64,000 bases of DNA from Candidatus Woesearchaeota archaeon (GCA_016188265.1 JACPID010000007.1:3592-67591), one strand, 5' to 3'. Shown: positions 30,001 through 36,000, numbered from the stretch's first letter. Numbers: made by a program.

Positions 30001-33000
30001 GGAAAATATGTATAGTATTGCTAAGAAATTTTTTAAAAATCACTTTAAAAAGAATCATAACAAAATATTTTAATAAAAATATTACACGTGAAAAATTTCT
30101 TGATTTTAAGATAGTGTTTGATACATATGAGAATTTTCATTATTTATTTCAGGAAATATTTGTTCACCAATATTACTATTTTAAAACAAATAAAAAAAAT
30201 CCTAACATTATTGATTGCGGTGCTAACATTGGTATGTCAATTCTTTTTTTCAAATGGATCTATCCTGAAGCAAAAATAATTGCATTTGAACCCAATCCAA
30301 AATCTTTTGAACTTCTTAAAAAGAACATAGAACAAAATAAGTTAAAAGAAATTACTTTAGTGAATGCTGCGGTTTGTGATGTAGAAAAAAATATGAAGTT
30401 TAGCGTAAATGGAAGTCAATTAAGTTTTTTGAAAACTGTTAAAGATAAAAATGAAGAAGTATTTGTTCGGGCTGTAAAATTATCTAAATACATCGATAAA
30501 ACTGTTGATTTATTAAAAATTGATATAGAAGGTGCAGAAGGCAAGGTTATTTCTGAAATTAAATCTAAACTTAAACTAGTTAATCAAATGGTTTTTGAAT
30601 ATCATGAACGTGGAAATATAAATTCTTTATCAGAGATTCTTAGTAATTTAAAAGAGTTTAAATTAGTTTTCGCATATAGTAGCATGCATAAAGTTCCAAC
30701 AAAGTATAACTGGTTTATAATAATGGTTTATTGTTTTAGAGATGTCGATAATTAAAATTCAACTACACTAAAAACATCTTCTACTTTAGTATCACTAAAC
30801 CAGTCTTTTCCTTCACCGTAATTAGTTGTATAAAGATCAACTCTTGCATCATATTTTTTTTCATTTTTCCATATTGCCTTTGATCCTTTTGTAAGTGGAG
30901 CTTTTCTTTTTGGATGTGTGCATCCAAATATTGTTATTACTGGTTTGTTCATTGATGCTGCTATATGCATTGGTCCTGAATCATTACAAATAATTTTCTT
31001 ACAATAATTTATGAGTGCTGCTGTTTGATAAATGCTGGTTTTTCCTGCAAAATCATAGATATTTTTATGATGATCTAACCTAGCTTTGATGTCTTCGTGA
31101 AGTTTTTTATCATTATTTCCTCCAAATAGAAAGATTGTGTGTTTATTTTGTAGTTTTTTTATTAATTCAACATAATTCTCTTTAGGCCAGATGCGAGTTT
31201 TATCATAATCTCTCCCAGGATTGTGCGCTCCTCCAGGAATGACCCCTATGATAGTTTTCTTTTCTAGCTTGTTTTTTTTTATAAATAAATGTGCAAATTC
31301 TAAATCAGTTTTTAAAGGAAATAAGTCTAGTTTAGTGTTTTTTTCAGTTAAGTTAAATGCTTTTAATAATTCTAAATAATATTCTATTTCATGTTTTATA
31401 ACACCATAATTTACATTATAATTATTTGAAAAGCCCTCTCCAAAACGATTGAAGCCTATTCTTTGAGAAATTCCAGTTGCCAAAATAAATAAGTTAGCCA
31501 GCCAAGATTTATCAAGAATAAATGCTGTGTCATATTTTTGTTTTTTTATTTTAATTAATAATCTTATTTTGTTGAAAGGATTTTTTGCATGAAAACTTTC
31601 ATCTGGCATTGAAAATACGTTATTAAGATAAGGATTATTTTGAAGAACCTTCGCGCTCCAATTGCCAGTTAAATAATCAATAATAGTTTCAGGATATTTT
31701 TTTCTCAATACCCTGATTAGAGGTGTTGTCATTAATACATCTCCGATTGCTCCTGACTTAAAAAGAAGAATTTTTTTAGGAGAACTTATTTTATGAGAAA
31801 TAAATGGTTTGAAAAATAAATTTCCAAGAGCACAAACAAGTTTTGTTATAATCATGATTTTTTTATTTTATCAATAATTTCTGAAGTTGAACAACCTTCT
31901 ACTAAAGGTATTATAACAACATTTCCACCATATGATCTAACAAATTCAGCGCCAACTGTTGTAGAAAAAGTATAATCACTGCCTTTAACAAGAACATCGG
32001 GTTTTATTTTTTTAATAATTTGTTCAGGGGTATCTTCTTCAAAAAATACTATTGCATCAACACTAGATAGGTTTGAGAGAAGTTCAGCGCGTTCTTGTTG
32101 TTTGTATATTGGTCTTGAATTTCCTTTAAGTCTTTTAACAGACTCATCACTATTAACAGCAAGAACTAATAAGTCTCCTAATTCTTTTGCTTTTTGCAAA
32201 AGCCTTGTATGCCCTATATGAAGAAGGTCATAACAGCCATTTGTAAAAACTATTTTTTTCCCAGCTTGTTTTTGAATAGTTGTATACTCAATTAATTCTT
32301 CAAGCGACTTAATTTTTAGATTAATAGATTCTTGAAATGATAAAAGCAATTCATTTTGAGTTACTGCTTCAGTACCTACTTTTCCAACTTTAATTCCTGC
32401 TGCATTATTAGCGATTCTTGCAGCAGTATAAAGATCTGCATTATTTGCTATTGCTAGCGCTATTGCTGCCAGCGTAGTATCTCCTGCACCAGTCACATCA
32501 TAGACATTTTTAACATTAGCTGAAATGTTAATAGATTGCAAGCCCATTGAAAAAATACTCATACCTTTTCTTCCAAGTGTTATAATTATGTTTGAATTTG
32601 TTTTTTTTTGCAATTCTATCCCCATTTCTTCAATGGTTTGTTTTTGAGTGATTTTTTTTGCTTCTGAATAATTTGGTTTTATCAAGTAAACATCTTTGTA
32701 AAAACTTATATTTTCTGGTTTTGGATCAACAATGATCTTTTTATTCTCTTGTTTTAAAAAATCAACAAGGTTTTGTGTTATAGTTCCTTTGTTATAATCT
32801 GAAATAACAACTAAATCAAACCTTGACAAACGCGTTTTTAATATATCATAAAATGATGGAATTTCTTCATCATATCTTTCTTCATGATCAACTCTCAGCA
32901 TGTGATGAGATTCGCTTATAATCCTCATTTTCGTAATTGTAGGATGAAGAGTGCTTAATAAAATTGTATCAATTGATTTTTCTTTTAGAATGCTTCTTAA

Positions 33001-36000
33001 AATACCTGCTTGTTGATCAGAACCAACATATCCTGCTATAGTGCATGATCCTCCTAAAGCAGTAATGTTTGCAGCAACATTACCTGCACCTCCTAAAGCA
33101 TATGATTCTCTCTCTAAATTAACTATTGGAACAGGAGCTTCAGGGCTTATTCTATTTGTTTTTCCCCACAAATAATGATCTAGCATAACATCTCCTATAA
33201 CTAGAATGTTACTTTTAGAAAATGATTTAATTATAGATGAATAATCCATGATGTGATTAATTAATAAATAGTTTTTAAAATGTTATGGATAGTAAGTCAT
33301 GTAGGAGATTTTATTAATGTACAAAGATAAATTATGTATTTATGAAACAACGCTTACAAAAAATCCTTGCTCAAGCAGGTATTGCGAGTAGAAGAAAAAG
33401 TGAAGAGCTTATTGCTAAAGGCAGAGTAACTGTTAATGGATTAATAGCATCTCTCGGCCAGTCTGCTGATCCTGAAAAAGATATTATTAAAGTAAATGAA
33501 AGACAAATCACGTTAGAAAAAAAAGTTTATATCAAGCTGTATAAACCAGCAGGATTTGTAAGCACTGTCGAAGAATCACACGGAATGCCAACAATTATGG
33601 ATCTTGTTAAATCTTCTTACAAAATATTTCCAGTAGGCAGATTAGATAAAGATACTGAAGGCCTTATGTTGTTAACTAACGATGGAGAACTTGCAAATAA
33701 AATCATGCATCCGAGATACGGTATAGAAAAAGAGTACATTGTTCGCTTAAATAAAATATTTCAACCAATTAAAAAAAAAGTAGTTGTTGAAGGCAAAGAA
33801 GTTAATGCAAAAATCAGCCCCAGAGAAAATCCTTATGAACTGCTAATAAAAATTAAAGAAGGAAGAAAACACATTGTCAAAAAATATTTTGAACAAATTG
33901 GTTATAAAGTTTGTTATTTGAAAAGAATAAGCATTGGCCCGCTTGTTTTATCAGGTGTTAAAAAAGGAACGTGGGGATATTTAACCAGTAAAGAAAAACA
34001 ATTACTTCTTAAATTGTAAATTAAGTTCATTCAATTGTTCTTTTTCAACATCAGATGGTGCGTCGAGCATTAAGTCTCTTGCATCTTTATTCTTTGGAAA
34101 TGCGATTACTTCGCGAATACTTTCTTCTCCAGCTAATAAAGAAACAAATCTGTCCAGCCCGATAGCCATTCCTCCATGCGGCGGAGTTCCATATCTAAAT
34201 GCGTTAAGTAAGAAGCCGAATTTCTTCTGAGCTTCTTCTTTTGAAATACCTAGAACTTTGAATATTTTTTCTTGAAGATCTCTCTTATGAATTCTTATTG
34301 ATCCTCCGCCCAACTCCCAACCATTTAATACAAGATCATAACTTCTTGCTCTTGCTTTTTCAGGATCTTTATCTAATAAATGAAGGTCTTCTTCTTTCGG
34401 CATAGTAAAAGGATGATGCATACAATAATATCTGCCTTCTTCTTTTTTATATTCTAAAAGAGGAAAGTCAACAACCCATAAAAAAGCAAATTCCTCTTTA
34501 TTCTTTCTAAGATCAGGCTTATCTGTTTTATGCTTTTCCATTGCTTCTTTCCAGCTCATCCTTGGAAAAGGAATCTCAATATCTTTGTTCAATACTTCTT
34601 TAAGGACTTGCTTCATCATGCGCTCCATCAATGAAAATATATCTTCTTCTGTTAAATAACTCATTTCAATATCAATTTGTGTAAATTCAGGTTGCCTGTC
34701 TGCTCGCAAATCCTCATCCCTAAAACATCTTGCAATCTGTACATATCTATCATAACCTGCAACCATTAACAATTGTTTAAATAATTGTGGTGATTGCGGT
34801 AAAGCATAAAAGCGCCCTGGATTGACTCTAGAAGGCACAAGATAATCTCTAGCGCCTTCAGGTGTTGACTTACATAAGATTGGAGTTTCAATTTCTAAAA
34901 AATTTTGTTTGTCAAAAAAATCTCTTACTGCTTTTACAATTTTATGCCTCAGAACAAGATTTTTTTGTAAGTGTTTTCTTCTAAGCTCAAGATACCTGTA
35001 TGTTAATCTTGTTTCCTCGCTTGATTCAATTCCAGTTAAATCTATTGGCAGTTGATCTGCTTCATTTAATAATTCTAAAGATTTCACTTGAACTTCTATT
35101 TCCCCAGTTTCAAGATTTTTATTTGGCGCTGGCCTAACAGTAACAATGCCTGTTGCTTTTAACACACTTTCTTTTTTTACATCTTTTAATTTAGCACATA
35201 ATTCTTTTTCAAGAAACAACTGAGTAATGCCATACCTATCTCTCAAATTAATAAATCCAAATTTACTCTGAATTCTAATATGATCCGCCCAACCACAAAG
35301 AGTTACAGTTAAATTCTCATGTTCTTTTCTAAGTTCTCCGCAAGTATGTGTACGAAGCATGCACGAAGAAAAAGTGGATGTATTTTTAAGCTTTTAGACC
35401 AAAATACTAATAAATAACGCACAATAACTGGATTATGAAATTTGCGACTATATGGGCCTGTAGTCTAACCTGGACAGGACGTGTGGCTTCGGACCACAAG
35501 ATCGGGGTTCAAATCCTCGCAGGCTCGTAGTGAGCGAAGCGAACGGAGAGACTGAGAGGTAAGAAAATAGCAATTTTCTGCATCTCGCAGGCTCGTTTTT
35601 CAATACTTGAACCATCTATACTAATAAAACTCAAATCAATAAGTTTAGGCTTTGAAGCAATATCAACTGTTTGCTTAAAAGCAGACTTAATTTACTGTTC
35701 TGTTAGTGCTTCTTTTTCTTGGAATCCTTCATTTATTATTTTATCGAACATTTCTAAGAGTATTTGTACATCTGCATTTTGTAAGTTTAGTTTGAATAGT
35801 TTTGCATTGCCTATGTTTCTCGTGTGTATTACTATTTTTTCTTTGGTTAGTTGTGGCCATAAGCGGAAGAGTGTTACTCTGTCGATTCCTGAACCTTCAG
35901 CAATGTCTGTGAGCGAATGATCTAGTTCTCTTCCTTCTAATAGGTATTCGAGTACTCTGATTTTTGGGTTGTCTCCTAATAGTTTTCTGAATTTTGTAGG

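Follow-up and report, generated by a model that had tools for sequence, protein, structure and literature searches.

The genome of an uncultured archaeon, Candidatus Woesearchaeota (GCA_016188265.1), possesses genes for ADP-heptose synthesis, and their content and arrangement suggest that heptose is probably added to the sugar chains of its surface proteins. The first step of the synthesis, for which the isomerase GmhA is missing, is probably catalyzed by a cupin encoded on a different contig. As the initial annotation had pointed out, NDP-heptose formation in archaea has already been reported (Tang et al. 2024, according to excerpts of PMC11461863); in addition, the heptose-containing N-glycan of Thermoplasma acidophilum provides a precedent (excerpts of PMC11407970), and ADP-heptose genes are present in the glycan clusters of the methanogens M. 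maripaludis KA1 and JJ (PMC12667266). The consulted portions of these texts name no GT9–AglB link, DPANN case or non-SIS isomerase, and none of the papers listed by our literature searches describes a GT9–AglB link or a cupin phosphoheptose isomerase.

Heptose genes and the surface-glycan island

The window, i.e., the whole stretch of 64,000 nucleotides analyzed (JACPID010000007.1:3592-67591), lies on contig C4. Its relevant features and those on other contigs are as follows, with paired values giving bit score/cut-off.

1–33249, no strand: surface-glycan island with GT2, GT4, GT9, GT-C, methyltransferase, radical SAM and amidotransferase genes, its last unit being hldE–GT9
3501–4676, + strand: GT9 'c', third of the GT9s and more diverged, amid GT4 genes (PF01075, E 3e-34; TIGR02195, 121/134.6)
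15746–17029, + strand: Wzx-type flippase (PF01943, E 1e-12)
18141–19772, + strand: membrane glycosyltransferase with a GT-C fold, family unnamed (AF2 model, pLDDT 87.5; Foldseek)
30752–31855, − strand: GT9 'b', WaaF-like heptosyltransferase, 367 aa, intact (TIGR02195, 166.9/134.6; PF01075, E 2.5e-38)
31852–33249, − strand: HldE, bifunctional heptose-7-phosphate kinase/heptose-1-phosphate adenylyltransferase, 465 aa, intact (TIGR02199, TIGR02198)
53243–54322, − strand: GT9 'a', of the clade that follows GT2–DUF2304, candidate for adding heptose to lipid-P-HexNAc (PF01075, E 5e-36)
54319–54651, − strand: DUF2304 small membrane protein, GacJ/Rv3632-like putative activator of GT2 (PF10066, E 2.4e-20)
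54648–55361, − strand: GT2, predicted polyprenyl-phosphate sugar synthase, PpgS/GacI/AglK-like (NF058614, 204/370)
55396–58623, − strand: AglB/STT3 oligosaccharyltransferase, 1075 aa (PF02516, E 1e-36; PF21436)
58674–59765, − strand: geranylgeranyl-reductase-family gene upstream of aglB (TIGR02032, 138.8/158.8)
C21:3265–3762: cupin, candidate phosphoheptose isomerase, unlinked to hldE
C22:53868–54773: HldD-like ADP-heptose 6-epimerase (TIGR02197, 236 bits, below the cut-off of 274.6)
C25:59500–61392: transketolase

HldE possesses a PfkB kinase domain and a cytidylyltransferase-like domain, both at full length, which places it in the family at the level of the rfaE models, and exhibits the motifs DVTGAGD, HIGH and C-terminal LVEGCSTS. 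It scores above the cut-off of TIGR02199 (202.2/181.5) and just under those of TIGR02198 (328.9/345) and NF008454 (475/521). Its closest counterpart among the compared loci is that of a family member (51% identical). The STT+5 position, a motif taken from excerpts of PMC11461863, is occupied by Lys, not Arg.

GT9 'b' is encoded directly behind hldE with a 4-base overlap. The initial annotation had described this pair as hldE and a WaaF-type GT9; both ORFs are intact, and the profile scores were reproduced, as were the two further GT9s that it reported. GT9 'b' is 28% identical to E. coli WaaF, with Asp at the position of WaaC D13 (taken from the E. coli WaaC sequence) and the DxGxxH motif retained, and it alone reaches the WaaF equivalog level of TIGR02195, the other two falling below it (121 and 101.4). 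The catalytic Asp position and DSxxxH are retained in GT9 'c'. All three are members of CAZy GT9 by virtue of PF01075, an acidic residue at the D13 position and the DxGxxH donor motif, whose roles are presumably those of the WaaC residues. PF01075, previously counted in 31/76 family genomes, was found in 33/76 other family genomes at E<=1e-5.

The HldD-like protein, 33% identical to E. coli HldD as previously noted, scores under the HldD cut-off and far above its GalE score (95.7). It retains the Tyr and Lys of YxxxK and the Lys at the K178 position, which we take to be catalytic residues of HldD. The set resembles the canonical LPS-heptose pathway in its two-domain HldE, in its HldD-like epimerase and in GT9s that retain DxGxxH and the position of the catalytic Asp; it differs in having a cupin that probably stands in for GmhA, no GmhB and a GT9 linked to AglB. 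Profile searches with positive controls found no LpxC or WaaA family in this 98%-complete genome. There is therefore no Kdo–lipid A acceptor, and none of the Hep-Kdo2-lipid A type used by WaaF; as genes for lipid A and for Kdo transfer could not be detected, the earlier designation "LPS-core-type" fits the sugar and the enzyme families only.

Probable coupling of GT9 to the AglB lipid-linked glycan

The order GT9–DUF2304–GT2–AglB, noticed previously, was recovered by profile matches at 53243–58623 (− strand). AglB carries the STT3 domains with WWDFG at residue 640, in agreement with WWDxG; a second STT3-like gene is located at C19:7986–10334. The best NCBIfam match of GT2 is PpgS (NF058614), followed by AglJ (TIGR04182, 95.7/325), and its true start may be an ATG about 15 codons inside the call. 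The geranylgeranyl-reductase-family gene holds the same place upstream of aglB in relatives and possibly saturates the lipid carrier. An in-frame TGA in the DUF2304 genes of one genus was considered as recoding and rejected, since the match merely runs beyond the stop.

In family relatives, AglB–GT2–DUF2304–GT9–gmhA–hldE (kinase) forms a single conserved run. In this genome the run is broken up: 20 kb separate hldE and aglB, while the genes for the cupin, the HldD-like enzyme and transketolase are on other contigs. Within ±10 kb of the kinase at 60 order-level loci, many of them truncated by contig ends, GT9 was present in 45, DUF2304 in 27 and AglB in 21. In this family, the position behind GT2–DUF2304 acts as a slot with interchangeable genes. 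In genomes with the HldE kinase it holds GT9 in 20/27 (GT4 in 3, others in 3, contig end in 1), whereas in kinase-negative genomes it holds GT4 in 19/26 (GT9 in 1, others in 4, contig end in 2); Fisher's p for the GT9/GT4 cells is 3.9e-8, a value that overstates the association because the genomes are related and not independent. Three kinase-positive family genomes retain GT4 in this slot. Overall, GT9 occurs in 28/29 kinase-positive and 6/48 kinase-negative family genomes. All 46 GT9s directly behind DUF2304 fall into one clade (basal support 0.62), to which GT9 'a' belongs. The switching of the slot with the kinase ties heptose to the AglB lipid-linked glycan. Together with the conserved run, it lends comparative support to the proposal that heptose enters an archaeal surface glycan, which may be the N-glycan.

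The arrangement is similar to euryarchaeal dolichol-monophosphate N-glycosylation (M. voltae AglK/AglC/AglB and H. volcanii AglJ/AglG/AglB; excerpts of PMC8993221 and of section 6 of PMC11407970) in that AglB lies beside a GT2 lipid-phosphate sugar synthase and no AglH/WecA-type enzyme is present. It differs in that the second enzyme is a GT9 (or GT4), not a GT2, in the DUF2304 partner and in the lack of a detectable carrier synthase; no cis-prenyltransferase was found in this genome. Because searches for both classes of phosphoglycosyl transferase (PF00953 and PF02397) also found none in this genome, GT2s are the sole recognizable lipid primers.

The same GT2–DUF2304 pair is known from GacI/GacJ of Streptococcus (GacJ in excerpts of bioRxiv 10.1101/180810) and PpgS/Rv3632 of Mycobacterium, although here the GT2 is under the PpgS cut-off, with a predicted sugar specificity, and the pair is flanked by aglB and a GT-B transferase. 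What these characterized pairs produce, according to the literature consulted, is a monophosphate-lipid donor for GT-C enzymes that add side chains, and not a primer for protein glycans. ADP-heptose might accordingly be made as proposed and end up on a glycolipid, a lipoglycan or a lipid-linked side chain delivered by GT-C enzymes instead of the AglB N-glycan core. Consistent with this, the GT-C-fold family of 18141–19772 is represented three times in the window (paralogs at 332–2230 and 21100–22842), and in relatives its gene comes after that of GT9 'b'; the best Foldseek matches of the model are STT3, ArnT, AglB, PglB and DPY19 (E 4e-8 to 1e-6), and hldE–GT9 'b' does not adjoin aglB here. 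However, GT9 'a' is linked to aglB–GT2–DUF2304 in a broad range of families, and its place in the slot can be taken by a cytoplasmic GT4, as expected of the second step of glycan assembly; no other initiating transferase was found in this genome. We consider a destination outside the N-glycan core unlikely.

A cupin probably in the place of GmhA

TIGR00441, a family-built HMM, tblastn and a six-frame scan detected no GmhA in the 98%-complete genome and returned only PGI/PMI (E 0.007–0.02; TIGR02128, 292/214), the same SIS-domain protein named by the initial annotation; a hidden GmhA is thus rejected. GmhB was likewise sought, and only weak matches to general HAD proteins (E about 1e-4 to 1e-5) were obtained. 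Both the SIS-fold GmhA and the HAD-IIIA GmhB of the canonical four-step pathway are therefore missing. The phage mini-HAD described below has no match in this genome as a substitute for GmhB, nor does a HAD adjoining the kinase in another genome (blastp, E<=1e-3). The earlier remark that the pathway is incomplete on paper still holds for GmhB, while the gap at GmhA, its chief objection to heptose, is probably answered by the unlinked cupin.

The cupin and gmhA largely exclude each other. In the family, the cupin was present in 10/11 kinase-positive, gmhA-negative genomes, 0/18 gmhA-positive genomes and 1/48 kinase-negative genomes. Of 78 order genomes with the kinase, gmhA alone is present in 49, the cupin alone in 15, both in none and neither in 14, the last group including three genomes in 1–3 contigs; all 15 cupin genomes among the 221 order genomes carry the kinase. 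The cupin occupies the operon slot of gmhA, is present in otherwise complete hldD–kinase–gmhB–adenylyltransferase operons and is fused to the kinase in 59/84 longer homologs. At least 7157 homologs of near length exist. At 80 loci around the cupin, the kinase was found in 49 and gmhA in none, and among 50 cupin-bearing genomes 44 have the kinase, 6 lack it and 2 have a strong gmhA; two Opitutaceae-titled genomes carry both the cupin and gmhA, and in 4 genomes gmhA is accompanied by a cupin of a subfamily that matches less strongly (E 1e-16 to 1e-25). The kinase is present and gmhA absent in 13/14 Planctomycetota-titled genomes tested. Shared ancestry behind the exclusion is not supported, as the cupin and gmhA labels are scattered on a tree of 65 kinase sequences (13 changes vs 13.7 when shuffled). 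Some cupins are located between gyrB and gyrA. Phage genes annotated as phosphoheptose isomerase adjoin the cupin and could have counted against the exclusion; they were rejected as SIS isomerases, being 103–117 aa long with HAD motifs, matching phrog_415 and giving no score on the gmhA model built here.

The cupin fold and eight sugar/metal positions are shared with D-lyxose/D-mannose isomerases (PDB 7nzo, 2y0o and 3kmh) and the Thermococcus cupin phosphomannose isomerase (7zvy), from which the C21-type cupin differs in its shorter length (about 115–165 aa) and heptose-synthesis context. K62, H75, H77, K86, E88, H143, E156 and D163 of the Thermofilum D-lyxose isomerase all map onto it; the counterparts K40, H53, H55, K58, E60, H94 and E106 are kept in 117–118 of 118 rows and E/D113, corresponding to D163, in 118/118. 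The further invariant residues Lys21, His111, Asp115 and Arg118 may bind the 7-phosphate. The match to 7nzo has a Z of 13.4 (rmsd 2.7, 111 aligned, 28% identity); the fold search singled out no one family, many cupins being tied at Z 13–14. PF07385 is among the precomputed domains, with no NCBIfam match and PDB profile E values of only 6e-8 and 6e-7.

Given the promiscuity of cupin folds and the ties among the structure matches, the cupin could be an epimerase or act on another substrate, the bifunctional PGI/PMI could carry out the GmhA step, or the GT9s could use another nucleotide sugar. The GT9s are just 23–28% identical to WaaF, two of the three are under all heptosyltransferase cut-offs, the catalytic Asp is replaced by Glu in most GT9s of clade A, and the HldD-like protein is below its cut-off. 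Against a different sugar stand the cupin's presence in otherwise complete heptose operons and the co-occurrence of GT9 with the kinase; moreover, an enzyme added for modification would be expected alongside gmhA, not in its absence, and the cupin is found together with gmhA in 0/64 genomes at the order level. A different sugar seems distinctly improbable.

The scatter of the genes over four contigs and two loci and the absence of gmhB might indicate a decaying remnant that no longer makes heptose; nevertheless, every ORF is intact with its catalytic motifs, and gmhB (E<1e-30) is found in just 9/29 kinase-positive family genomes and is absent from four 92–100% complete ones with a tight heptose operon, so we give decay little credence. 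True LPS or bacterial contamination, suggested by enzyme families best known from Gram-negative LPS and a bacterial-type AspRS 750 bases off, is rejected as scarcely credible given L7Ae, S28e, a diphthamide-synthesis gene and AglB on the same contig, a GC content of 30–33% across all contigs, nearest homologs from family members among the compared loci, and the absence of LpxC and WaaA.

Proposed pathway and its implications

We lean, if only somewhat, toward a pathway in which heptose from ADP-heptose is built into the AglB-transferred surface N-glycan. The transketolase, whose gene is present in a genome where no transaldolase was found, would supply sedoheptulose 7-phosphate, which the cupin would putatively interconvert with heptose 7-phosphate in GmhA's stead. 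HldE would phosphorylate C1, a general HAD phosphatase, invoked because no GmhB was found, would take off the 7-phosphate, and HldE would then adenylylate the product for epimerization at C6 by the HldD-like enzyme. GT2 and DUF2304 may load HexNAc in the manner of AglK on a polyprenyl monophosphate that is probably host-derived. It is fairly likely that the first heptose is then attached by GT9 'a', with further heptoses or branches coming from GT9 'b' and 'c'. The flippase would export the glycan, GT-C enzymes and methyl- and amidotransferases would decorate it, and AglB would transfer it to Asn.

For a broader generalization we see an even chance: a widespread DPANN N-glycan would begin with lipid-P-HexNAc-heptose made by a dedicated GT9 clade, and ADP-heptose would be formed with a phosphoheptose isomerase of cupin fold, a second type not homologous to GmhA. 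This enzyme would have ousted GmhA several times over, in DPANN archaea, in genomes titled Planctomycetota and Bdellovibrionota, and in marine cyanophages, where the misnamed mini-HAD would be the phosphatase.

If true, heptose synthesis would have an alternative enzyme in the cupin for its committed step. This would close the gap in the pathway of kinase-positive genomes without gmhA, correct several phage annotations and bear on surveys of the organisms able to produce this ALPK1 agonist. The proposed pathway would give a concrete use for archaeal ADP-heptose, left open in the excerpted commentary on Tang et al. (PMC11461863), and would offer an initial prediction of how the N-glycan core is built in an uncultured DPANN lineage.

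Heptose genes of the window and their setting

The ADP-heptose and GT9 glycosyltransferase genes of the source genome (G000; 924 kb, completeness 98%, contamination 1.2%) are as follows; the window spans contig C4, 3592-67591.

3501-4676: additional GT9 gene of the window (GT9 'c')
30752-31855: GT9 'b', intact, behind hldE; TIGR02195, 166.9 bits (cut-off 134.6)
31852-33249: bifunctional hldE (kinase plus adenylyltransferase), intact; TIGR02199, 202.2 bits (cut-off 181.5); TIGR02198, 328.9 bits (cut-off 345)
53243-54322: GT9 'a', last gene of the run GGR-AglB-GT2-DUF2304-GT9
contig C22: HldD-like gene; 236 bits (cut-off 274.6), 33% identity to E. 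coli HldD

The initial annotation had reported hldE with a WaaF-type GT9, two further GT9s, one of them in the AglB run, and an HldD-like epimerase; all were recovered, and those of its figures that were re-run hold. The hldE-GT9 feature is real and native to this genome. Contig C4 is archaeal, since L7Ae, S28e, a diphthamide gene and AglB lie on it, and GC content is even across contigs. The closest homologues among the fetched loci belong to members of the same family (HldE 51%, GT2 57%, GT9 'a' 47%), and most titles of related loci name Woesearchaeota or Nanoarchaeota. Within the family (77 genomes), GT9 is present in 28 of the 29 genomes carrying the heptose-7-phosphate kinase domain vs 6 of the 48 kinase-negative ones. 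A true LPS was ruled out, as the LpxC and WaaA families had no match in the genome although control searches were positive.

Adjoining hldE is a gene of a bacterial-type family, an S4-domain RsuA/RluB-type pseudouridine synthase (33342-34019, + strand). The bacterial-type aspartyl-tRNA synthetase (34002-35360, - strand) has just 452 aa and matches TIGR00459 in two stretches (648 bits, cut-off 374); its internal insertion domain is apparently missing. Elongation factor 2 (39515-43264, + strand; 1249 aa) contains an intein within its G domain.

A cupin as the probable stand-in for GmhA

As had been noted initially, neither the SIS-fold isomerase GmhA nor the HAD phosphatase GmhB was found in this 98% complete genome. 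GmhB is strong in just 9 of the 29 kinase-positive family genomes, and four near-complete family genomes with tight operons also lack it; E. coli gmhB mutants reportedly retain partial heptose via other phosphatases.

In the relative G062, a 142-aa cupin lies between GT9 and hldE, the position of gmhA in relatives, and in G031 and G032 the cupin is likewise close to the kinase. The cupin of the source genome (C21:3265-3762) is 61% identical to the G062 type and has housekeeping neighbours. Of the kinase-positive family genomes, 18 have gmhA (E<1e-30) and all 18 lack the cupin, one (G017) having a weak cupin relative; the cupin occurs in 10 of the 11 without gmhA and in 1 of the 48 kinase-negative genomes. 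G074 carries a fusion of cupin and kinase, and gmhB and the adenylyltransferase gene come next. In the order sample (221 genomes), all 15 genomes with the cupin (E<=1e-44) also have the kinase, and the 78 kinase-positive genomes divide into 49 with gmhA (E<1e-50), 15 with the cupin, none with both and 14 with neither (p 1.8e-8; 48, 13, 0 and 14 without the unpublished G241, with gmhA, and G303 and G305, with the cupin). Weaker cupins (E 1e-16 to 1e-25) occur in six order genomes, four of them with gmhA, and three of the cupin genomes encode a diverged paralogue of the SIS family (E 1e-31 to 1e-34). The two genes alternate in one operon slot, the order being gmhA-hldD-kinase in L221, L225 and L235 and cupin-hldD-kinase in L216 and L220. 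On a kinase tree of 65 sequences the cupin and gmhA labels change 13 times vs 13.7 when shuffled, which indicates repeated swaps. In G195, which has neither gene, an L-fucose-isomerase-like gene directly upstream of hldE (L204:2-940) is a possible third isomerase candidate.

A set of 84 longer cupin proteins comprised 59 fusions to the kinase, two to the adenylyltransferase and three to an epimerase, and 20 matching none of the models used; L033:547-1902 is one example of a kinase-cupin fusion. Around the cupin at 80 GTDB loci (including four duplicate family contigs and two loci from one genome) we found the kinase at 49, adenylyltransferase at 42, gmhB at 35, GT9 at 33, AglB at 20 and gmhA at none; L048 reads cupin-hldD-kinase-gmhB-adenylyltransferase, with scores at or near the cut-offs. 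When 50 of these genomes (20 from loci with a kinase close by, 30 from loci lacking one) were searched whole, the kinase was found in 44, including 24 of the latter 30, and gmhA in none above the cut-off (E<1e-50 in two, E<=1e-15 in nine). At L063, L108, L114, L119 and L120 the cupin sits between gyrB and gyrA; the kinase is encoded elsewhere in three of the five genomes and missing from two. Diverse heptose-enzyme fusions (adenylyltransferase-GmhA, adenylyltransferase-GmhB, cupin-HldD and kinase-like-GmhA) occur in these archaea at L023:5116-6177, L024:7028-8083, L025:1764-2810, L050:5980-7236, L234, L241, L244 and L251.

Eighty viral cupin loci carried an adenylyltransferase (49), a kinase-like gene (46), a GHMP kinase (6), a weak SIS match (2) and a mini-HAD gene (53). 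In the cyanophages P-SSM2 (L263:8607-8951), S-CAM1 (L264:5640-5963) and S-SM2 (L265:5637-5966), the mini-HAD is annotated as phosphoheptose isomerase (phrog_1238) and the adjoining cupin as nucleotidyltransferase or cysteine dioxygenase. These 107-114 aa proteins carry the HAD motifs DIDGT, TARG, GKP and IDDK and are probably the phosphatase.

In its C1-C2 stereochemistry, the step from sedoheptulose to D-glycero-D-manno-heptose matches that from fructose to mannose. With the AF2 model of the cupin (pLDDT 94), many cupins tied at Z 13-14, among them Thermococcus phosphomannose isomerase; the highest identity, 28%, was to Thermofilum D-lyxose isomerase (7nzo; Z 13.4, rmsd 2.7, 111 aligned). The sugar and metal contacts described for 7nzo, K62, H75, H77, K86, E88, H143, E156 and D163 (PMC8378251), align to cupin K40, H53, H55, K58, E60, H94, E106 and E/D113 by profile alignment with an inferred tag offset of 24, and these positions are conserved in 117-118 of 118 rows. 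K21, H111, D115 and R118 are likewise invariant and may bind phosphate. Transketolase, which scores over its cut-off here, could provide the substrate. The distribution and gene order make it likely that the cupin fills the GmhA role.

Association with AglB and proposed assembly of the glycan

Across 20 family regions, chosen mostly around hldE, the order AglB-GT2-DUF2304-GT9-gmhA-(gmhB)-kinase/adenylyltransferase-GT9-membrane protein recurs; the source genome has the same genes split into two blocks 20 kb apart. Using custom HMMs with thresholds set here, we found GT9 at 45, DUF2304 at 27 and AglB at 21 of 60 order loci (+-10 kb around the kinase, many cut by contig ends) fetched from the 78 kinase-positive genomes.

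DUF2304 occurs in 54 of the 77 family genomes, and the position directly after GT2-DUF2304 was read in 53, the unpublished G068 being excluded. That slot holds GT9 in 20, GT4 in three and other genes in three of 27 kinase-positive genomes, with one contig end, vs GT4 in 19, GT9 in one and other genes in four of 26 kinase-negative genomes, with two contig ends (Fisher p 3.9e-8 for the GT9/GT4 cells, the genomes being related and not independent). In a FastTree phylogeny of 115 GT9s, all 46 directly following DUF2304 fall in one 68-leaf clade (support 0.62) that includes GT9 'a', and an inner 66-leaf clade (support 0.97) contains 44 of them. Most members of the post-DUF2304 clade have Glu at the WaaC D13 position; the three window GT9s have Asp there and keep the DxxxxH donor motif.

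The initial proposal that an ADP-heptose-derived sugar enters a surface glycan, possibly the N-glycan, thus appears probable, the run being recurrent and the slot tracking the kinase; that ADP-heptose feeds the AglB glycan specifically is rather likely from the genomes compared. Class-B-like radical SAM genes (7962-9683 and 11344-12891) and six SAM methyltransferase genes in the glycan island suggest heavy tailoring.

No phosphoglycosyl transferase of either class was found in the genome, which fits GT2-primed assembly on a lipid monophosphate. The window GT2 would then resemble M. voltae AglK, a GT2 that primes assembly in this way (PMC8993221; PMC11407970). Against such a simple primer reading stand the characterised GT2-DUF2304 pairs, which supply donors to GT-C side-chain enzymes (bioRxiv 10.1101/180810). 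In relatives, GT9 'b' is followed by a membrane protein family that has three copies in the window and a GT-C fold (model pLDDT 87.5), with Foldseek matches to STT3, ArnT, AglB and PglB. Since no cis-prenyltransferase matched in the genome, the lipid carrier is probably host-derived. Two large exported proteins, C16:18189-23957 (1922 aa, 110 N-x-S/T sequons) and C25:73153-77109 (1318 aa, 64 sequons), are likely AglB substrates. Besides AglB, the genome encodes another protein with an STT3 domain (782 aa) at C19:7986-10334 (L304:3987-6335).

Functional NDP-heptose enzymes exist in archaea, their role being left open in the commentary on Tang et al. (PMC11461863); heptose occurs in the T. acidophilum N-glycan (PMC11407970), and glycan clusters of M. 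maripaludis KA1 and JJ contain ADP-heptose genes (PMC12667266). Passages in PMC5744192, PMC5864196 and PMC4973528 add nothing further on these points. Our search, with most subscription journals outside it, found no paper on GT9 with AglB, DPANN heptose glycans or a cupin phosphoheptose isomerase; the supplements of Tang et al. could bear on these. Taken together, the genomes tip the balance modestly towards a known ADP-heptose pathway in variant form, in which the AglB glycan would be the destination and the cupin would act as GmhA.
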